Source: an uncultured Gemmatimonadales bacterium (lineage in GTDB: Bacteria; Gemmatimonadota; Gemmatimonadetes; Gemmatimonadales; Gemmatimonadaceae). From it: DNA of 64,000 nucleotides. Location of the stretch: NCBI GenBank assembly GCA_963850905.1, contig CAWKMU010000004.1, positions 448,001 to 512,000 on the forward strand. Reading direction: 5' to 3'. The position numbers and the translations under genes are program-made. A model generated the notes under the pieces. That model was given only the letters and a program-made list of their open reading frames with translations. It was not told the DNA's origin and searched no databases. How positions within the stretch are numbered: the stretch's first letter is position 1; the number at the start of each line of letters is the position of its first letter. Positions 15,192 to 47,742 of this stretch are shown here, piece by piece.

Positions 15192-16638
15192 ATGCGCTCC
15201 ATCCGATCTACTGCCCGTCGCGCGAGCCTGCTGCTCGCTTGGACCATCGTCCCCGTCACCGCGTCCCCACTCCATGGACAAGCGGCGCCAGGCCTGCCCG
15301 GCGACGCGCCCCCTGGTGTGCTGCCGGGAGTGAAAATCGGCGGCAGCCCCAACGTGCACCTCCTGGCGCACATCCCGCTCGGCGGATACGCCCAGGTGAG
15401 CAACGTCGACGTGGAGCAGGAAGCGTCCCGGCCGTACGCGTACGTCGCCCAGATACTCGCCCATACCGGCTTTTCGATCTTCGACTTGCACGACCTTCAC
15501 AACGTCAAACTCATTTACCACTGGACCTTCGAGAATCTCGCGTTGCACCAACCGTTCACGGGTGGAGTCGACGGGAAGTACTTCAAGCTCAACGGTCGAT
15601 ACTACTTCATCCTGGCGACGCAGTTTCACCAAGGGACCCCCGACGCCGATCTGGGCGCGGTGATCGCGGATGTGACCGGGCTTCCCGATACCAGCAAGGT
15701 CAGAATCGTCGCACGAATCCGCGCCCCTGAGACGCCGGGCGGGTTCCACATGCTCTTTCCCTATAAGCACTCGGATGGACGCACGCTCTTGTTCACCACC
15801 GCAATGGCACCCCGCGCCAACGTCTACGACCTGCAGAAGGTGCTCGCCGGCGGCGACGCGGCGCAGTGGAAGGTGGGAGAGGTCCCGGTGCCCGACACAC
15901 GGGAGAACACACCGCTCGGGCTACAGGGTTATCACGACTTCTATGTGGCGTACGATGCCGCCACGCATCAGGACAAGTTCTACGGGGCCGGGCGTGGCGG
16001 CTACTACGTGTACGACATCACCAACCTGGCGGAGCCCAAGTTGCTGACCTCGATCGCTGGGACGGCGGGCGTCTCATGGGGCCACACCATCACGCCGGAT
16101 CCTACAGGTCGATTCGCCGTCACCGAGACGGAATACACCTTCGCGCCGCTCCGGATGTTCGACCTCAAGCCAGGTTTGGATGGCAAGGTGCAGACGATTA
16201 CGCAACCGATCGGCGCTTGGAACGCGGATTGGCACGACCTCGCGCACAATCACGAAGTGCGCTGGCCGCTCGTCTTCGTGTCGGGCTACGAGGACGGGTT
16301 GCAGATCTTCAGCATGTACGACCCAGCACACCCCGTGACGGTCGGTTGGTACTACACGTGTCAGTGCACGCATGACGAAGGCATCGGGGGAGGGCCGCCG
16401 AGCTGGCATGCACACGGAAGCGTCATGCAGGGCCCCTTCGGCGTCGACGTGCGGAACTACGACGGCTTGATCCTTATCAGCGACTCGAACACGGGCCTGT
16501 GGACCTTCAAGATGGACGGCTTCGACGGATGGAACGGGCACGATTGGGGGGTGCCCAACATTCTCGAGTGTGCAGGACTACGACCACGGTCCCGAAGGCG
16601 CCACCCCACACACCGGTCACCCCGCCGCGTCCCCCTGA
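15192..16638 (+). CDS. Secreted LVIVD-like beta-propeller protein, paralog A (frameshift ~16562)
   Basis: Signal peptide; near-identical blocks with 40395-41904 and 54827-56272. Shifted tail SSVQDYDHGPEG matches the paralogs. Confidence 0.75.
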
Positions 16639-16640
16639 TC

Positions 16641-17831
16641 TCACGTCTCCATCGGCAGCCCCACATAATTCTCCGCCAATGTCGTCGCCGCGGCCCGTGA
16701 ACTGGTGACGTAATCGAGCTCTGCCAGTTGGCGCCGATGATCGAATGCACTGGCGCTCTCATCGCGGTGGAGCATGGATGTCATCCACCAGGAAAAGCGC
16801 TGCACTTTCCACACGCGGCGCAGACACGTCGCGGAATATGCCGCCAACCCCGCGCGCTCACCGGTGGCAAAGTAGTCAGCCAAGACGCGCGCGAGCACCA
16901 TCACGTCTGCGACCGCGAGGTTGAGCCCTTTGGCACCAGTCGGCGGGACGATGTGCGCCGCATCGCCAGCCAGATACAATCGTCCGTACTGCATCGGCTC
17001 GACGACAAGGCTCCGCATGTCGGTGATGCCCTTCTGCAGAACGGCTCCGCGCGTGAGCGCAAATGTGCCATCGGTGGTCGCGAGCCGGCGATCCAACTCC
17101 TCCCATACCCGTCCGTCGGGCCACGCCTCAACGCGCTCGTGGGGCGTGCACTGCAGGTAGAGCCGGCTGATGTCGGGCGACCGCATGCTGACCAGCGCGA
17201 AGCCCCGGTCGTGGTGCGTGTAGATCAACTCACTCGAGGGCGGGGGAGAGGCCGAGAGAATGCCGAGCCAGGCAAACGGGTACGCCCGTTCGTATTCGAC
17301 GAGTGAACCCGCAGGGATGCTCCGGCGGCTGATGCCGTGGAAGCCATCACAGCCTGCGATGAAATCACAGGTGAGTTGGCAGTCCCGACCCTCATGCCGA
17401 AATCTCAGCGAGGGCCTGTCCGACGTGAGATCATGCAACGAGACGTCCGCGACTTCGAAGAGCAGCGGAGCACCCGTCACTTGCCGCGCGTCGATCAGGT
17501 CCTTCACCACTTCCTGCTGTCCGTAGATGGTGATGCCGCGCCCCTGCGCGAGATCGTCAAAGTCGATGCGATGTCCCCGTCCCGCGAACCGAAGCTCGAT
17601 CCCCCGGTGCACCAGACCCAGGCGGCCGAGTCGTTCGCCGACGCCCATCGCACGCAGAAGATCCACCGTTCCCTGTTCAAGCACGCCCGCCCGCACCCGC
17701 TCTTCGACATACTGCCGGGTTTGCGCCTCGACGACGACGCTGTCGATCCCCTGCAGAGAAAGCAGTCTCGCGAGCGTCAAGCCCGCTGGTCCAGCGCCGA
17801 TTATTCCAACTTGCGTTCTCGTGGTCGTCAC
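16641..17831 (-). CDS. pobA: 4-hydroxybenzoate 3-monooxygenase
   Basis: RTQVGIIGAGPAGL, RAGVLEQG, YGQQEV, GCDGFHG, GDAAHIVPPTGAKGLNLA, AENYVGLP. Confidence 0.97.
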   Translation of the reverse strand: MTTTRTQVGIIGAGPAGLTLARLLSLQGIDSVVVEAQTRQYVEERVRAGVLEQGTVDLLRAMGVGERLGRLGLVHRGIELRFAGRGHRIDFDDLAQGRGITIYGQQEVVKDLIDARQVTGAPLLFEVADVSLHDLTSDRPSLRFRHEGRDCQLTCDFIAGCDGFHGISRRSIPAGSLVEYERAYPFAWLGILSASPPPSSELIYTHHDRGFALVSMRSPDISRLYLQCTPHERVEAWPDGRVWEELDRRLATTDGTFALTRGAVLQKGITDMRSLVVEPMQYGRLYLAGDAAHIVPPTGAKGLNLAVADVMVLARVLADYFATGERAGLAAYSATCLRRVWKVQRFSWWMTSMLHRDESASAFDHRRQLAELDYVTSSRAAATTLAENYVGLPMET

Positions 17832-34021: not shown

Positions 34022-34931
34022 CTACGACGAAGTGCTGGTGAGACGTGGCTTGGCGATGTGAGCAATCTCGCACAGGACGTCGACCATCGAGGAGAAATCT
34101 TTCGCCCCGTGACCGGAGCTGCGGGCGACGCTGAAACTCTCACGCGCGGCAGCCGCCACAGGCATCGGGACCTTGACTGCGTTGCCGGCTTGCACGATCA
34201 GAGTGAGGTCCTTGTGAGCCAAGTCGATGGTAAAACCGGGCTCCGTGTCTCCCTTCAACACCTTCGCCGGCCACGCGATCGCGAGCTGTCCGTTCGTCGC
34301 GGTCGTGCCATGAATGACATTCGAGCGTTTTTCGCAGCGAGAGTCCGAACCGCTGCGAGAGGGCCAGGGCCTCGGCGTTGAGCTGGCAGGAGATGATCGC
34401 TAGATAGTTGTTGACCAGCTTCGTCCGCATGCCGGTGCCCACCGCACCGCAGTGATGGATCGTGGTCCCCATCGCCTCCAGGAGCGGCTTGACCTGGGCG
34501 AATGTCGCCTCGTCTGCGCCCACCATGAAAAGCGACTCGCCGCGCTCGGCGTGGCTCGCGAGCCGGCCAACCGGCGCGTCCACGAAGGCCATCCCCTTGC
34601 GCTTCGCCGCCGTCGCTAGCCGATCGGTCACCAGCGGATCGATCGTGCTCATATCCATGATCACCGACCCGGCGCGCGCATGCGCGAGCACCCCGTTGGC
34701 TCCAGTGATCACCTCCTCGACGACAGCCGAATCGGGGAGCATCGTGATGACCACGTCCGACGACTGCGCGACCTCGGGAACCCCTTTCGCGCCCCTGGCG
34801 CCAAGGCCAGCGACTGCGTCGACCGGCGGCGTGAGAACGTCGTACACCACGAGCGAGAATCCCTTGCGCACGAGGTTCGACGCCATCGGCCTGCCCATGT
34901 TGCCGAGCCCGATGAATCCGACCGTTGTCAT
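34022..34931 (-). CDS. Beta-hydroxyacid dehydrogenase family reductase, YihU (sulfolactaldehyde reductase)-like (frameshift ~34320)
   Basis: [50 protein letters not shown]. Confidence 0.85.
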
Positions 34932-34972
34932 GGCGCTCCCGTGTAGGTGAGAGTCCGGAATGTACGCACGAA

Positions 34973-35155
34973 GACCGGCTGGGGCGACGCATTGCGTCGC
35001 CCACCATGGCCGTCCGCAGAATCTTCGCTCAGGACGGATAGGGGCGACGCATCGCGTCGCCTGGCATGGCCGTCCGCTGAATCTTGCTTTGGACCGGTAG
35101 GGGCGACGCATTGCGCCGCCCGCCATGAGCCGTCCGCAGAATCTCGCTCGACGGT
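34973..35155 (+). repeat. Three ~60-bp units, each a REP palindrome plus a conserved CATG(G/A)..CCGTCCGC(A/T)GAATCT linker
   Basis: Read directly. Confidence 0.85.
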
Positions 35156-35183
35156 CAGGGCAACCCATCCCGCCGGCCCAGCA

Positions 35184-36578
35184 TCACGGTCCGTTAGGCG
35201 GTGCCAGTTGGCCGTCGGAGCGCAGCATCTCGAGGCTCGCCTCGAGTGCGGCCGCCGTGGCGTCGATATCGGCGGCGGTGTGAGCGGCGGACGTGAAACC
35301 CGTCAATCGGCTGTTCAGGTCAACGCCGTTCGTCAACAGTGCGAGGCGCAGGAGCTGGGCCAGCGCCGGTGGGTTCGAGAGTAGCTCGCGATAGCTCAAC
35401 GCCATCGGATCGAACTGCAGCGGGTCGATGTCGCGGCGCTGTGGATTGAGGAAGAAGTGGAAACCGCTGAAGGTGCCGTAGACAGCCCATGGCACGCGAG
35501 CCGCCGCCAGCACATCGTTGAGCCGTGTCCGCAGGGCTTCGGCCGCAGCGGTCGCGCAGCGACACGCGTCGGTGGTGCCGACGAGCGTCAGCGTCGCGAT
35601 CCCGGCCGCCGCCGACAGCGGATTGGCATTGTACGTGCCTGGGTGCGTGATCTTCTCGCGGCCCTTGCGCTCCATCGCCTCGAAATCGATCCCGTCCAGG
35701 ATGTCGCGTCGGCCGCAAACGGCTCCGCCGGGCAACCCGCCCGCAAGGATCTTGGCCAAGGCGGTGATGTCGGGCATGATGCCGAATTCCGCTTGGGCGC
35801 CGCCCGGCGAAACGCGGAAGCCCGTGATGACCTCGTCGAACACGAGGAGGATGCCGCGCTTCTCGGTCTCCTCGCGAACGAGCGACACGAAGCCCGGCGA
35901 GATCGGCGCCGCGCCAAAGCTCGTGCCCGTCGGCTCGAGTATGACGCATGCGATGTCGTCGTGGCTCGCGAGAGCCTGTCGCAAGGCGGCGGGGTCGCCG
36001 GGTGGCAGCAGAATCACATTCTCGGCGACACCTGCGACCACTCCGAGGGTAGCCGAGCCATCGAAGTGATTGGTGTGTCCCGACGTCATGTGGTCGTGCC
36101 ACCCGTGGAACTGCGTGAGGAAACGCACGAGCTTTGGCTTCCCCGTTGCTGCTCGCGCCAGACGCACGGCCAGGAGGGTCGCTTCAGTGCCAGAGGAGGT
36201 GAAGCGTACGGACTCGGCCGACGGAATGAGCTGGTGCACCAGCTGCGCCCACCGAACCTCGCCCGCATGGTTGGCGCCGAAATGCGTGCCGTACTTCAGC
36301 GCCGCCTCGGTCGCTGCCACTACCCGTGGATGGTTGTGGCCGAGGAGCAGCGAGCCGTGGCCGCCGAAAAAGTCGATGTACTCGTTGCCATCGACATCCC
36401 ATTTACGCGATCCCGCGGCGCGCTCGACGTAGATGCCGTATGGCTTGGTGTACCGAGCGTCATGCGTGATACCGCTCGGCAACAGCTCGCGCGCCTCCGC
36501 GGCTATCCGCTCCGAGCCCTGGGTGCGGCTTCGATAGGCCGCCACGATCGTCGAATCAGTCAAGGTTGCGACAGACAT
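35184..36578 (-). CDS. Class III PLP aminotransferase (glutamate-1-semialdehyde aminomutase-like fold)
   Basis: WDVDGNEYID, RFTSSGTEAT, FHGWHD, FDEVITGFR, LAKILAGGLP, HPGTYNANP. Confidence 0.92.
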   Translation of the reverse strand: MSVATLTDSTIVAAYRSRTQGSERIAAEARELLPSGITHDARYTKPYGIYVERAAGSRKWDVDGNEYIDFFGGHGSLLLGHNHPRVVAATEAALKYGTHFGANHAGEVRWAQLVHQLIPSAESVRFTSSGTEATLLAVRLARAATGKPKLVRFLTQFHGWHDHMTSGHTNHFDGSATLGVVAGVAENVILLPPGDPAALRQALASHDDIACVILEPTGTSFGAAPISPGFVSLVREETEKRGILLVFDEVITGFRVSPGGAQAEFGIMPDITALAKILAGGLPGGAVCGRRDILDGIDFEAMERKGREKITHPGTYNANPLSAAAGIATLTLVGTTDACRCATAAAEALRTRLNDVLAAARVPWAVYGTFSGFHFFLNPQRRDIDPLQFDPMALSYRELLSNPPALAQLLRLALLTNGVDLNSRLTGFTSAAHTAADIDATAAALEASLEMLRSDGQLAPPNGP

Positions 36579-36618: not shown

Positions 36619-37371
36619 CTAGCGCATGGAGCAGTTGACGTAGACGAGGCCGCGGTGAGCGCTCGCGATCGCGCTCGTTCGCGGCAGCTCAGAGGCGTAG
36701 TCCCCGCGCTCGATCCGCCACAGATACGGAGGATGGGAGCCGGGATAGATGTCGACAACGCCGCCATCGAGCAGGTAGTAGGCATAGAGAAGGACGGGTG
36801 TTTCCTCGACCAGGAACATCGCCCACCGTTCGAGGCTCGCGGCGTCACGTGTCCCGTTGGCGCGGTCGCGTGCGTGCGCAACCACATCACTATAGAGGCA
36901 ACCGCGCGCCTCCCACGCCCCGTTGACTTCTCCGCTGAGCCAGGGCGGCGTCTCCGCTGCCAGGTCGCCCCACGAGATGAACGAGAGGCGTTGCGAGTCG
37001 TACCGACGCAGGATCCTGCGCACCTGCCGCACCCGGTCCTGGCTCAAGCGTCGCACACCATCGATCCCACGCTCGGCACTCTGTCCATTGGTTGCCGCCA
37101 CCGCATTACGCAGATACGGCCGGTCGACCACCGTGACGTAGCCGACCCGGAGGCACTCGCTGGCGAACCGGCAGTAGCCGTCGATGAGCGCCGTGGTGAA
37201 CAGGCGATTCTTGATGCTGACCATCAACATCCCGACGCGATCAACAAGGGACGTCGCGTCAGGTGGGGCCGTCCGGCAGCTCATCTCTCCCCCAAGCCGC
37301 TCGTGGCCGCGCCACGGAACCGAGAAGATGACGGGCGGATCGGCCGGTCGCGTCGTCGACCTGGCCGTCAT
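36619..37371 (-). CDS. tRNA-dependent cyclodipeptide synthase (CDPS)-like protein, XYP type
   Basis: ~250 aa. LMVSIKNRLFT (SxxN), VVDRPY..N, FLVEETP (Y/F-xxx-E-x-P) and DIYPG (YP) occur in CDPS order. ATG overlaps the upstream TGA. Confidence 0.65.
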   Translation of the reverse strand: MTARSTTRPADPPVIFSVPWRGHERLGGEMSCRTAPPDATSLVDRVGMLMVSIKNRLFTTALIDGYCRFASECLRVGYVTVVDRPYLRNAVAATNGQSAERGIDGVRRLSQDRVRQVRRILRRYDSQRLSFISWGDLAAETPPWLSGEVNGAWEARGCLYSDVVAHARDRANGTRDAASLERWAMFLVEETPVLLYAYYLLDGGVVDIYPGSHPPYLWRIERGDYASELPRTSAIASAHRGLVYVNCSMR

Positions 37372-38237
37372 GTGGCGCGCGAACTGACGAAGTCCCGCAG
37401 TCGCCGCGCCGCCAGCTCGAGGTGGCGGCCGACCGGAGGAAAACGTTTCACCCACGACGGGGTAATCCCGACCGTCTTGTTCGCGTCAATCACGGTCGCA
37501 ACATCATCCACCATGAAGTAGTCGATGGCGCCGAAGTCGAAATGCAGTGCGCGCCGCACAGCGATCACCGCATCAGGTACGTCCGAAAAGCACTCGACAC
37601 CCACGACATTTTCGGGGTCGCAGAGCAACCCTTGATGGGTAGACCGGATATTGAGCTCCACGTCGAAGAAGAAATCGTATCGGTATTTCTCTATGGGTGG
37701 CTCGAGACGTCCGGGCAGAAACCGCTCGACCATCAGCCGGCGATCGTCCCACACTGCGCCCGGCACGGCGGCCATCAATGGATACACGGAGTACTCCGGA
37801 CAGGCGCGGGCCACGAAGCGCGTGTCAATCCGGGTTCGGAGGTTGTGCCAGGCGCGCCGCGATAGCGTCCGCCGGCTCTCGAACCGGACCTCGGGCCACC
37901 CGTGGTGGTTGAGCACCGTCTTCACGATCACGGGCCCATCGTAGGCGTCGCCGCGAACGACACGGACCGTCGAGTACAGCAGGCGAGAGATGTTTGTGGC
38001 GCGCCCATTGACGCATGCCGCGTAGCCCTCTTCTATCCCACGAAAGGTGTCTGGCACCACCGTGAGGTCTACGTGGAGAAACGCGTGGCTCCCACAGTCC
38101 TGCGGACGGAAACGGTCCAGGATTCGATACGCCAGGCGATCTCCTCCAGCGGCGCGGAGCATGTGCTGCAGCTTGTAATCCTCGCTTTGCAGAAATGCAC
38201 GCGCGTTCTCGACATAGATGTCGAGCTGGGCTGACAT
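37368..38237 (-). CDS. Divergent ATP-grasp-like protein (paralog 1)
   Basis: GPVIVKT, LMVERF, DFGAIDY...VIDAN pattern; homologous to 46720-47742. Confidence 0.6.
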   Translation of the reverse strand: MSAQLDIYVENARAFLQSEDYKLQHMLRAAGGDRLAYRILDRFRPQDCGSHAFLHVDLTVVPDTFRGIEEGYAACVNGRATNISRLLYSTVRVVRGDAYDGPVIVKTVLNHHGWPEVRFESRRTLSRRAWHNLRTRIDTRFVARACPEYSVYPLMAAVPGAVWDDRRLMVERFLPGRLEPPIEKYRYDFFFDVELNIRSTHQGLLCDPENVVGVECFSDVPDAVIAVRRALHFDFGAIDYFMVDDVATVIDANKTVGITPSWVKRFPPVGRHLELAARRLRDFVSSRAT

Positions 38238-40394: not shown

Positions 40395-41904
40395 CTATGG
40401 CGCCGCTGCCGGCTTGCCACTCGGCGCAGCGTGCGTGCCGTCAGGCCCGTGATCGTAATCCTGGACACTCGAGATATTGGGCATGCCCCAGTCGTGCCCA
40501 TTCCATCCATCGAAGCCGTCCATCCGGAAGAACCACACACCGGCGTCCTCGTCGCTGATCATGATCAGGCCGTCGCGATTCCGCACATCAATCCCAAAGG
40601 CCCCTTGATCGACGGACTGCGTGTTCATGAACGCGCGGGCCATTGATCCGATTCTGGTGGCTGCAGGGACAGGTGTAGTACCAGCCGACCTCGGTCGGGT
40701 GCGCTGGATCGTACATGCTGAAAATCTGCAGCCCGTCCTCATAGCCCGACACGAACACGAATGGCCAGCGTACCTCATGGTTGTGTGCGAGGTCCCGCCA
40801 GTCGGCCTGCCACGCACCGATCGGGTGGTTGATAGTCTGCACCTTCCCGTCGAGGCCCGGCTGCAGATCATACACGCGAAGCGGAGCGTATTGGTACTCG
40901 GTCTCCGTGATCGCGAATCGGCCGTCGGGACTCGGGGTGAACGTATGCCCCCAGTCGACGCCTGAAGAGCCGGTCACCGACGTCAGGAGCTTGGGCTGGG
41001 CGACGTCCGTGATGTCGTAGACATAGTATCCGCCCCGGCCGGCGCCATAGAACTTGTCCTGATGCGTCGCCGGGTCGTACGCGACATAGAAGTCGTGATA
41101 ACCCATGCGACCCAGCATGGTCGTCTCACGGGTGTCGGGCACAGGGACCTCGCCAATCTTCCACGCCGCTGGGTCGCCCCCTGAGACGACCTTGGCGAGG
41201 TCGTAGACGTTGGCACGTGGTGCCGCAACGGTCGCGAAGAGCAGCACACGGCCGTCCGAATGCTTGTACACGAAGGTATTGTGAAAGCCGCTCGGCGTCT
41301 CAGGCGCTCGAATGCGCGCGATGATCTTGATCTTGCTGGTGTCGGGAAGATCGGTGACGTCCGCAATCACCGCCCCAAGGTCTGCGTCGGGGGTGCCTTG
41401 GGCAAAGCCAAACGACTGCAGGTAATAGTATCGGCCGTTCAGCTTGAAGTACTTGCCATCCATTCCTCCAAGCATTCCCCGGTGAAGCGCAACGTTCTCC
41501 ACGGTCCATCGATAGAGCAAGCGAACGTTACTGAGGTCGTGGAGGTCGATGATCGCGAAGCCAGAGCGGTCCTGCGCCATCGAGACGTAGGCATATGGGC
41601 GGTTGGGATCCTGCTCGATCTCGTCATCCATGACGCGAACCGATCCGCCGAGCGGGATGTGCGCGATCGGATGGATGTTCGCGCTCCCACCGACCTTGAC
41701 CCCGGGGAGAATGCCGGGAGGGGCGGTCCCGGGAGCCTGCGCGACTACTGCCGCTGCGCTCGCAACCAGCGCGATGCCGACACCGGCGGCCTGCCACCGG
41801 CGCAATCGGTCGCCGCGCCGCGCCGTCCCCTGGCGCCGGGTGGGCGTACGTAGCTCGCGATGACGGCAGCGATCGTCACTTGCGGGAATTGGCATTGGTG
41901 GCAC
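40395..41904 (-). CDS. Secreted LVIVD-like propeller protein, paralog B (frameshift ~40645; start approximate)
   Basis: Shared blocks DGKYFKLNGRYY, GYHDFY, HNHEVRWP, GFDGWNGHDWG. Confidence 0.75.
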
Positions 41905-45417: not shown

Positions 45418-46518
45418 ATGGCAACCACCATCGAGCATGAAGAACTTGCAGGAATCGCGGGCGCCGCGATGCGCGGCAAGCGGGCCCGTCGCGCACTCAT
45501 CGCCCACCTCCTGAAAGAGAGGAGCGAGGGCCAGGACGAGGAGGAGGGCGATGAAGGGTACAGCGAGGAAGGGGGAGGAGATGAGCGCAAGCTCGTTCGC
45601 CTCCTCATCGCCAGCCGCATCCTGCGCCGTCGACGACTGCGTCGCTTGGTCGTTGCGCACCTGTTGAGCGAAAAAGGTGAGGAAGGCGAAGAAGGCGATG
45701 AGGGTGAGGAAGGTGAGGAGGGTAGCGAAGAAGGGTCGACCGATGACCGCAAGCTCGTGCGTCTGTTGATCGCCAGCCGCATGCTCCGCCGTCGTCGCGT
45801 CCGCCGCGCTGTGCTCGCCCACCTCCTCAAGGAGCGAGGCGAAGCAGCGGAAGAGGGCGACGAAGGCGAAGAAGGCGAAGAGGGTGAAGAAGAGTCCGGC
45901 GCAGAAGGAGAAAGCGATGAGCGCACGCTCGTCCGTCTCCTGATCGCGAGCCGCATGCTCCGCCGCCGTCGCGTCCGCCGTGCCGTACTCGCCCACCTCC
46001 TCAAGGAGCGAGGCGAAGCAGCGGAAGAGGGCGACGAAGGCGAAGAAGGCGAAGAGGGTGAGGAAGAGTACGGCGAGGAAGGTGGAGGCGATGAGCGCAA
46101 GCTCGTCCGTCTCTTGATCGCCAGCCGAATGCTCCGCCGCCGTCGCGTACGCCGCGCAGTCATCGCCCACCTCCTGAAGGAGCGGGGCGAAGCCGGAGAA
46201 GAGGGCGACGAAGGCGAAGAAGGCGAAGAGGGTGAGGGAGAGTACGGCGAGGAAGGTGGAGGCGATGAGCGCAAGCTCGTCCGTCTCTTGATCGCCAGCC
46301 GCATGCTCCGTCGCCGTCGCGTGCGCCGCGCTGTTCTCGCCCACCTCCTCAAAGAGCGCAACGAAGGAGAGGAAGGTGAAGGCGATGAGGACGAGTCCGG
46401 CGAGGGTGACGGACGAAATCGAGAGCTCATGCGCCTGCTGATGGCTAGGCAGGCCGTGCGCCGCCGACGCGCGCGCCGTGCCGTCGCCTACTCCATGCAC
46501 AACGGACACGACGAGTAG
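45418..46518 (+). CDS. Tandem-repeat polyampholyte protein (Arg-rich segment / Glu-Gly tract)
   Basis: GAGGAG RBS. ~58-aa units; differences between copies are largely synonymous in this frame. Confidence 0.8.
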   Translation: MATTIEHEELAGIAGAAMRGKRARRALIAHLLKERSEGQDEEEGDEGYSEEGGGDERKLVRLLIASRILRRRRLRRLVVAHLLSEKGEEGEEGDEGEEGEEGSEEGSTDDRKLVRLLIASRMLRRRRVRRAVLAHLLKERGEAAEEGDEGEEGEEGEEESGAEGESDERTLVRLLIASRMLRRRRVRRAVLAHLLKERGEAAEEGDEGEEGEEGEEEYGEEGGGDERKLVRLLIASRMLRRRRVRRAVIAHLLKERGEAGEEGDEGEEGEEGEGEYGEEGGGDERKLVRLLIASRMLRRRRVRRAVLAHLLKERNEGEEGEGDEDESGEGDGRNRELMRLLMARQAVRRRRARRAVAYSMHNGHDE

Positions 46519-46624
46519 TCAGCGGAACAGCGGGCCTTGGGACTCGGGACCGCTTGAGATACAAAGACAGCGATTGCAAAGGGCCAGTGGCGGCTATCCG
46601 TCACTGGCCCTCACTGTATGTTCA

Positions 46625-46670
46625 CCCGTCATCCGTCACCCGTTACCCAGCCGTTCCGTCACCCGTCACC
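46625..46670 (+). repeat. Degenerate heptamer array (CCGTCAC)n
   Basis: ccgtcat ccgtcac ccgttac ... ccgtcac ccgtcac. Confidence 0.65.
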
Positions 46671-46719
46671 CTTCCACGCCGGCTTGACACTGGCCCACCC
46701 CTTCGAGGAGCCAACAAGC

Positions 46720-47742
46720 CTGAGACTCGCCATCTACGAGTGGGATGCCTGGCACCAGTTCATGCTGGTGCGCGCCGTCCCGGAAGCCGTTCGGGTCAGC
46801 GCTCGGATAGGCGAGAGCGCTGACGAGATCCTTGCCCGTCTGCCGGGAGGGATCAATGCCTTCGCGTTCCATCTCAACATGACCGCGACTGCGGCTTTTC
46901 CGGCAGACCGGCAGGTACTCGTTCACGAGTTGCTCGCACGGGGGATCGTGCCACTCAACGGGGCCGTCACCGACATCTCCAAAACCCAAGTCCACGCTCA
47001 ATGCCGGGCGTTCGGACTCCCGAGCCCCGCGACCGACATCCATGGCGAGGCATCGGAACTGGTGATCGTGAAGACTGATCTCAACTTCGGCGGCAGGTCT
47101 GAGCGACAGCTTCCGTCGGCGCACTCGGGCACCATCGGGCCGCAGATCTCGGCAGTCATGTCCGACTGGACCGCCTATCAGATCATGCGCCGCGAGGAAG
47201 TGCCAGCCGCGTGGTGGAATGATGCCGCGCTGGTCATCGAGCGCTTCATCGACAATCGCGCGCAGCACCTCTACCGAGTCAATTTTGCAGGCGATCGTGT
47301 CGTCATTCTGCGGCTGACCAATCCGCACCCGCTCAAGAAGATCGTGAACTCGACGGCCCGCCTCGACGTGTACTGCCGGACCGAGGATCTCGCGACCGGC
47401 GCCGTCGCCGGCGTGGAGCCGCTCGTCGCCGCCGCGATCGTAAGGTACCTCGACCGATCCGGCATGGACTTCGGCGCGCTCGAGATCATTCCGGATGATG
47501 CGGGCCACGCGTACATCATTGATGTCAACAGCACGTGCTACGCAAAGGTGCTCAATGTGCGGATCCTCACGTACCTCCGTCGGGGACTGTTCGCGAGAAT
47601 CGCGGCGCGAGCCGCCGGCCTGGGATGCCCGATCCCCCAATGGCGCACCCTCGCCCTCCCAACCTGGCCGATGCTGCGCAGCGACGCGAAACGCCTAGCC
47701 GAAACGCTGATGTCCCGTACCCGCCGCGCACCCAGCACCTGA
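46720..47742 (+). CDS. Divergent ATP-grasp-like protein (paralog 2; start uncertain)
   Basis: LNGAVTDISK, VIVKTDLNFGG, VPAAWWND..LVIERF, DFGALE...IIDVN. Confidence 0.62.
   Translation: MRLAIYEWDAWHQFMLVRAVPEAVRVSARIGESADEILARLPGGINAFAFHLNMTATAAFPADRQVLVHELLARGIVPLNGAVTDISKTQVHAQCRAFGLPSPATDIHGEASELVIVKTDLNFGGRSERQLPSAHSGTIGPQISAVMSDWTAYQIMRREEVPAAWWNDAALVIERFIDNRAQHLYRVNFAGDRVVILRLTNPHPLKKIVNSTARLDVYCRTEDLATGAVAGVEPLVAAAIVRYLDRSGMDFGALEIIPDDAGHAYIIDVNSTCYAKVLNVRILTYLRRGLFARIAARAAGLGCPIPQWRTLALPTWPMLRSDAKRLAETLMSRTRRAPST

Follow-up and report, generated by a model that had tools for sequence, protein, structure and literature searches.

What would a cyclodipeptide synthase (CDPS)-like protein and an ATP-grasp-like enzyme make together, two peptide-bond-forming chemistries encoded in one unit? 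The window that raises this question is a stretch of 64,000 nucleotides from an uncultured Gemmatimonadales bacterium. On its minus strand, the gene for P0002, a 289-aa protein of an unnamed family with a predicted ATP-grasp fold, occupies 37368-38237 and is followed at 36619-37371 by the gene for P0001, a 250-aa CDPS-fold protein of the XYP type with Phe at the Tyr178 position of AlbC. Both reading frames lie where the initial annotation had placed them (38237-37368 and 37371-36619), and bases 37371-37368 do read ATGA, a stop/start overlap of the two genes that suggests translational coupling. The reading that we favour, and believe somewhat more than we doubt it, is that the CDPS-fold protein would make a cyclodipeptide and that the ATP-grasp enzyme would then amidate a side chain of the ring. 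An acylated diketopiperazine had also been one of the two guesses of the initial annotation and keeps its lead.

The gene models themselves appear sound. The start of P0001 at 37371 is backed by close homologs with the same start position and by a confident two-strand hairpin (residues 16-32) in the AlphaFold model; a database gene caller had called a shorter form of 201 aa (P0003). Compared with L005, a 90%-identical locus labelled Gemmatimonadales, 45 of 73 base differences in one gene and 35 of 54 in the other fall at third codon positions, so that both frames look conserved. A public contig from sequencing run X1, possibly the source sample, spans 37147-37798 and covers the overlap gap-free. 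One contig from run X4, at a depth of 2.5, carries a one-base insertion within the CDPS-like gene, which counts against our reading. The ATGA overlap is not universal: it is present in the window, L005 and L006, and is replaced by a gap of 8 bases in L003 and of 39 bases in L001 and L002.

Searched singly against Pfam and the PDB sequences, neither protein had a match. The AlphaFold model of P0001 (pLDDT 94.2) has the Rossmann-like CDPS fold; the Foldseek matches listed were all CDPSs, with BcmA at E 3.6e-10 (TM 0.66/0.76). Against TIGR04539, P0001 scores 17.9 bits (cut-off 45), and it has no match to the Pfam CDPS family (PF16715). Its 23 close homologs fare similarly, with 22 weakly matched by TIGR04539 and two by the Pfam family, a point that we count against our reading. 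A profile from these 23, searched against 1.84 billion representatives, found 164 proteins, of which the best 150 were used. In a tree of the sequences with at least 200 residues (140 of 170), a branch of 105 tips (the best-ranked 102 plus four added, one fragment dropped) stands apart from 38 more distant matches (FastTree support 0.953, midpoint root). A 97-sequence profile of this branch matched the solved CDPSs 9GUN (1.3e-12), YvmC (1.5e-9), ParcuCDPS (5.6e-9) and AlbC (5.2e-7). The ESM Atlas placed the protein among CDPS clusters at 0.83, which we treat as a lead only.

By alignment, S52, N55, F186, E190 and D207 of P0001 correspond to S37, N40, Y178, E182 and position 200 of AlbC, and Y209-P210 to Y202-P203. 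The motifs expected from the initial annotation are present, namely M50-V-S52-I-K54-N55, F186-L-V-E-E190-T-P192 and I208-Y209-P210-G211. Within the first, S52-x-K54-N55 (37207-37218, minus strand) holds the likely acyl-enzyme serine and the N40 equivalent (S in 101 of 102 branch members, K/R in 98, N in 92). D83-x-P85-Y86 (37114-37125, minus strand; D in 99, P in 101 and Y in 98 of 102) brings an aspartate that matches D58 of ParcuCDPS in the alignment, a residue that partners the catalytic serine and is essential in that enzyme (PMC7613923, in part). F186-x-x-x-E190-x-P192 (36796-36816, minus strand) covers the positions of AlbC Y178, E182 and P184, with Tyr replaced by Phe (F 99/102, E 102/102, P 101/102). 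Lastly, D207-x-Y209-P210-G211 (36739-36753, minus strand) holds the bottom of the P1 pocket, the cyclising tyrosine and the XYP proline (D207 and Y209 in 101 of 102, P210 in 100). The CDPS catalytic residues Ser37, Glu182 (with Pro184) and Tyr202 thus have counterparts in S52, E190, P192 and Y209, and the X40-Y202-P203 signature that defines the XYP subfamily (PMC11580168, in part) in N55, Y209 and P210. Predicted fold, branch profile and residues together bear out a CDPS-type fold with an XYP signature. Further residues are near-invariant in the branch: K/R54, P85-Y86, E148, Y198-Y199, D207 and P230. We presume that the Arg/Lys cluster of AlbC serves in tRNA binding; P0001 has a basic helix at residues 96-125 with nine K/R and four D/E. 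It is the region matching this helix in which that cluster was mutated (PMC3105412, in part).

Under the reading that we favour, the first amino acid would be loaded from its tRNA onto Ser52, helped by Asp83. Glu190 would position and deprotonate the amine of the loaded amino acid, and Tyr209 would assist ring closure to the cyclic dipeptide. The ATP-grasp enzyme would then activate a carboxylate as an acyl phosphate and add one amide bond to a ring side chain. Counting for this proposal, S52, D83, E190, P192, Y209 and P210 are kept in 99 to 102 of the 102 branch members.

Two conserved positions depart from the AlbC pattern. Phe186 replaces Tyr178, as in 99 of 102 branch members, and Met50 stands at Gly35; as Tyr178 is the fourth conserved catalytic residue, we file P0001 as CDPS-like and not as a family member. 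In AlbC, the Y178F and G35A variants were both poorly active (PMC3105412, in part), which counts against our reading. In the XYP enzyme ParcuCDPS, the equivalent variant, Y167F, still made cyclo(His-Pro), at a lower yield, according to the available part of PMC7613923. Active XYP enzymes often carry Pro, Leu, Phe, Ala, Val or Ile at position 35 (PMC5816076, in part), so Gly35 is not strict for this subfamily. Phe at Tyr178 and Met at Gly35 mark the branch and do not argue against ring closure. The initial annotation had called the enzyme atypical for Phe at Y178 and MVS for GxS; by themselves, these features do not point away from cyclisation.

The alternative that survives best, unlikely as we consider it, is that the CDPS-fold protein does not cyclise at all: Ser52 would hand its tRNA-derived aminoacyl group on to an amine that the ATP-grasp enzyme produces, or a linear dipeptide would be released and then extended or capped by that enzyme, giving a linear peptide or conjugate. 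The branch-wide loss of the Tyr178 hydroxyl, together with the new near-invariant residues, would fit a changed job. GNAT domains are fused to three CDPS-like relatives in a sister subclade (P0151, P0170 and P0297), which would suit a free N-terminal amine. A further hint comes from relatives of the ATP-grasp protein. In a 133-tip ATP-grasp tree, all 13 tips known to be paired with a CDPS-like gene fall into one 79-tip clade (support 1.0), and its sister clade comprises 28 tips (support 0.999) with proteins named Mesorhizobium. Family-5 peptide-binding proteins usually bind linear peptides. In all eight of the 202 Mesorhizobium genomes that carry the sister-type ATP-grasp gene, a gene for such a protein lies directly ahead of it, about 10-160 bases away by our own gene calls; the eight represent one synteny block, and the family label comes from one scanned protein (E 1.3e-96). 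At these loci (L048-L055), the two genes are divergent from genes for a 600-aa unknown protein and a 1200-aa DUF7929/DUF11 protein. Against a linear product stand the retention of Tyr209 (101/102) and Glu190 (102/102), the tolerance of the Tyr-to-Phe change in an XYP enzyme (PMC7613923, in part), Phe at position 178 in 10 of the 38 CDPS-like matches outside the branch, and the available part of a 2026 review, which gives cyclisation only for the CDPS family (PMC12945691). The case for transfer without cyclisation, raised in the initial annotation, is thus weak.

In two CDPS-like relatives of 430 aa, P0217 and P0218, the CDPS-like domain is preceded by an unnamed, hydrophobic N-terminal domain that spans some 200 residues; neither protein gave an informative Pfam match or a PADLOC match, and the two could be a membrane-anchored form. 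No ATP-grasp-CDPS fusion occurred in the best 150 of the 164 profile matches, the longest of which has 430 aa.

For P0002, the AlphaFold model (pLDDT 95.8) bears out the ATP-grasp-like claim. Foldseek retrieved Ddl, RimK and synapsin (E 3e-6 to 5e-6), and VIA-align ranked ArgX first (Z 15.4, rmsd 3.5, 236 residues aligned), followed by RimK (14.6), LysX/ArgX (14.2), GshB (14.0) and PPIP5K2 (13.9). The Foldseek comparison with CDPS and ATP-grasp structures proposed in the initial annotation has thus recovered both predicted folds. At the level of sequence, P0002 reaches no cut-off of a named ATP-grasp family (RimK, Ddl, LysX, graspetide maturases), and of its at least 512 relatives, 120 were among the matches listed and 115 were aligned, none of which matches an ATP-grasp Pfam family. 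The ATP-grasp profile A2 gave chance-level matches only, the best match of distant paralogs to Ddl was 1.7e-4, and the ESM Atlas returned unnamed clusters at 0.98. The residues follow the published ATP-grasp template, which comprises a linker Lys/Arg, a strand-2 Lys, a strand-4 Asp and a terminal E/D-x-N (PMC4431377, in part): R/K85 and K106 are found in 115 of 115 relatives, D239 in 113 and D251-x-N253 in all 115. Together with E171 and R186, these are likely the nucleotide, metal and ligase residues of P0002. R186, kept in 99 of 101 members of the closer group and placed by predicted secondary structure, is probably the Arg typical of amide ligases in the same template.

This bears on another alternative, which we regard as distinctly less probable than a linear product: the CDPS-fold protein would release a plain cyclodipeptide, and the ATP-grasp enzyme would be no ligase for it, instead phosphorylating the product or another small molecule, making an unusual precursor, or tagging a protein. 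D-x-N replaces the usual E-x-N in all 115 aligned relatives, kinases are among the top fold matches, and no named ligase family is reached at its cut-off; that inositol-phosphate kinases score as high as the ligases (PPIP5K2 at Z 13.9 versus ArgX at 15.4) counts against our reading. Inositol-phosphate kinases may also carry D-x-N, which we did not use as evidence. The same D-x-N is also found in CDC123 (PMC4431377, in part), the ligase-type Arg of that template is apparently present, and amide ligases take the first four places among the fold matches. D251-x-N253 aligns with the E-x-N of PruB in a weak match. An amide ligase seems likelier than a kinase.

The breadth of the ATP-grasp family can likewise be read in favour of a non-ligase role, since its partners are of several kinds and this genome encodes five paralogs that are more distant. 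Nineteen tips make up a third clade, which adjoins methyltransferase-like genes (all four of the neighbours that were scanned, one of them with a weak match). No CDPS-like match was found in any of 12 genomes with sister-clade ATP-grasps (eight Mesorhizobium, four of the third clade; positive control G401), which we count against our reading. That the ATP-grasp family is not bound to CDPSs weakens the initial annotation. Since sister ATP-grasps adjoin other genes and CDPS relatives are fused to GNAT or N-terminal domains, each enzyme appears to swap its partner, in most cases for a protein that tailors or binds small molecules. At one third-clade locus (L027, 6616-10576), the ATP-grasp gene lies amid unnamed ORFs, one of which encodes 76 aa with a serine motif that we take to be carrier-protein-like. 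Of the five paralogs, one is encoded in the window itself (46618-47742, plus strand; E 2.5e-10 to profile A2) and four on contig C3. Relatives of the distant paralog in G402 are solitary, lie in varied contexts and keep the D-x-N.

Is the pair more than a chance neighbourhood? In all six loci fetched with the CDPS profile, an ATP-grasp gene lies directly upstream on the same strand. As L004 and L006 look like one organism, this leaves five distinct loci apart from that of the window. One comes from Gemmatimonadales and one from a Betaproteobacterium; a third lies on a seawater contig, where the ATP-grasp shares 96% identity with a protein that bears the name Ahrensia sp., and the remaining two are on further metagenome contigs. 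Of 28 further CDPS-like entries, eight share source and contig size with a listed ATP-grasp (null mean 0.20, maximum 3, from 20,000 shifts of the lengths); this test misses the true pairs L001 and L002. Over 12 pairs, seven of them from size matching, sequence identity in one gene tracks that in the other (Spearman 0.58, Mantel p 1e-4), which shows co-inheritance only, because kinship explains such a correlation. Order, strand and tight spacing are kept at 34-64% ATP-grasp identity. The flanks differ at every paired locus outside the genus, so we regard the pair as a two-gene cassette that recurs in unrelated bacteria. We rejected a larger conserved unit that would take in the CocE/NonD hydrolase gene upstream and, downstream, the genes for the aminotransferase, dehydrogenase and aldehyde dehydrogenase, because L005 alone shares these flanks with the window. 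A promoter scan gave 0 sites and carries no information. Genomic context is known for about 13 of the 105 branch sequences, and the 13 of 79 tips with known neighbours in the paired ATP-grasp clade were all found through the CDPS; both points count against our reading.

The cassette is rare and patchily distributed. It occurs in 2 of 401 genomes of its own phylum, and the ATP-grasp gene in 2 of 171 genomes of its own family; among 401 genomes of the phylum of G401, there was one strong match, the seed genome itself, and one weak one. P0053 had no match at E 1e-40 among 401 genomes of the G486 family, in a search run without a positive control. Three genomes of the same genus (92-98% complete) have no CDPS-like gene, and by DNA search close copies of the downstream genes are missing from them too, which leaves no empty insertion site to define. 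Searches of plasmids, phages and IMG/VR gave no match, and PADLOC matched none of 10 proteins, which lends no support to a known defence system. It is very improbable that the genes are neighbours linked only by history or that P0001 is a dead enzyme. In favour of this, AlbC-type enzymes have six residues described as conserved, two of which differ here (PMC3105412, in part), numerous metagenomic XYP enzymes were inactive in E. coli and the distribution is patchy as above; against it stand the order, strand and spacing retained amid different flanks, the third-position bias and the invariant active-site residues.

Several other features of the window were noted along the way. Between the pair and the paralogous ATP-grasp gene, 45418-46518 (plus strand) encodes a 366-aa low-complexity protein with about six repeats of 54-58 residues, in which an Arg-rich helix alternates with a Glu/Gly-rich linker; it has a counterpart in L005, and its Pfam matches are weak and composition-driven. 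The 3-hydroxyisobutyrate-dehydrogenase-like gene at 34931-34025 (minus strand) is frameshifted near 34320, likely an assembly error, because contigs from runs X1 and X6 lack one base and L005 reads through. In L005 (10794-13160), aminotransferase and dehydrogenase form one 788-aa frame; they are separate in the window, where about three GC-rich palindromic repeat units lie between them (34931-35205). A gene with a weak choice-of-anchor-B match (41904-40395, minus strand) is split by a frameshift near 40617; its L005 counterpart is split elsewhere, a paralog at 15318-16700 is whole, and the splits are probably assembly indels. Three genes at 44451-42862 (minus strand), where a cysteine motif was seen, resemble those for the alpha, beta and accessory subunits of a nitrile hydratase.

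Returning to the acylated ring that we favour, what might it contain? A ring lacks free termini, so that an amine (Lys-like) or a carboxylate (Glu/Asp) has to be present on one of its residues. Of the two, the amine is favoured by Asp207, which is near-invariant, and by the GNAT fusions of the sister subclade. Pocket residues were assigned by alignment and checked against the published ParcuCDPS pocket, which gave M48, M50, T80, V82, W134, V193, L194 and D207 for P1 of P0001. In AlbC, position 200 is the deepest point of P1 (PMC3105412, in part), and the branch-wide Asp207, which is matched by Asp in 7 of 38 sequences outside the branch, could accommodate a positively charged side chain. An acidic residue there does not define the substrate, because a cyclo(Gly-Gly) synthase has Glu at position 200 and an XYP cyclo(Tyr-Tyr) synthase is also acidic there (PMC5816076, in part). 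Moreover, the bulky residue at position 35 and the Trp at position 119 resemble those of Gly/Ala loaders, and a pocket that loads Gly or Ala, combined with an acidic residue as the second of the ring, is a possible alternative. Lys and Asp were the sole standard amino acids unseen in CDPS products as of a 2022 review (PMC11610984, in part). We therefore raise, tentatively and thinking it rather unlikely, the idea that this branch of about 100 sequences may be the first lysine-loading class of CDPSs, in which Asp207 would hold the epsilon-amine and a partner, the ATP-grasp enzyme or a fused GNAT, would acylate it. If so, the cassette would be a two-gene route to acylated or isopeptide-linked diketopiperazines and would yield the first lysine-containing CDPS product, and the sister ATP-grasp that Mesorhizobium-like genomes encode after a peptide-binding protein would work on a substrate brought in from outside.

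Either way, the locus adds a CDPS-like branch of about 100 sequences, whose tested members are weak or silent against standard profiles, and an unnamed ATP-grasp family joined with it in a small two-gene unit. Studying the pair could show whether an enzyme with a natural Tyr178-to-Phe change cyclises, and would assign the first function within an ATP-grasp family that counts at least 512 relatives in the databases.

How does the pair compare with known systems? By predicted fold, P0001 is closest to the XYP CDPSs (ParcuCDPS 7QB8, SsBcmA 9J61, the putative P. gingivalis CDPS 9GUN and Fdum-CDPS 5OCD). It shares with them the equivalents of Ser37, Glu182, Pro184 and Tyr202-Pro203, the Asp aligned with ParcuCDPS D58, and Trp119, yet differs in its low identity (8-19%), the branch-wide Phe178 and Asp200, signatures of its own (S-x-[KR]-N, D-x-P-Y, x-Y-Y) and an ATP-grasp gene as partner. 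Its set of P1 residues does not appear in the accessible part of the 2018 pocket table (PMC5816076). P0002, for its part, resembles RimK, LysX, ArgX, GshB and Ddl in the three-part fold (Z 14-15, with some 236 of its 289 residues aligned), the Lys/Asp/Asn sites and the likely ligase Arg, whereas identity is 11-13%, D-A-N-K-T takes the place of E-x-N, a basic helix pair (110-145) is inserted, and the partner varies between the clades of its family, being CDPS-like in one, peptide-binding in another and a methyltransferase in the third.

Regarding the pairing, which the initial annotation did not recall as a characterised pathway, we found neither a bacterial CDPS-ATP-grasp pair nor this CDPS-like branch described in the open-access literature. 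Precedents nevertheless exist. Aravind et al. (2010) described CDPS genes beside Mur or GNAT ligases and predicted further peptide linkages on the CDPS product (PMC2922099, in part); those Mur ligases are P-loop enzymes, unlike the ATP-grasp partner here. In the available part of a survey of CDPS clusters, N-acetyltransferases are frequent neighbours and the words "ligase" and "grasp" are absent (PMC5767969), and the 2022 review, as far as its accessible text goes, counts "ligases" as CDPS tailoring enzymes with no detail (PMC11610984). The closest parallel is fungal. The ank cluster encodes AnkA, a tRNA-dependent cyclo(Arg-Tyr) synthase, and an ATP-grasp enzyme in the pathway to NK13650 (PMC11610942), and the latter, AnkG, was proposed to add L-Asp (PMC12568646, in part). 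AnkA-type RCDPSs use a Cys and a DDXXE motif (PMC11610942), and are said in the accessible part of a bioRxiv preprint to have no sequence similarity to bacterial CDPSs; P0001 has Ser52 and F-x-x-x-E instead, which sets it apart from the fungal AnkA/AvaA type. That a ring made from aminoacyl-tRNAs is amidated by an ATP-grasp enzyme is thus already known from fungi, and the window pair, as predicted, would share with the ank pathway a tRNA-dependent cyclodipeptide to which a clustered ATP-grasp enzyme adds an amide bond at a later step. The difference lies in the setting: AnkG acts late among several tailoring enzymes, whereas here the conserved unit consists of two genes.
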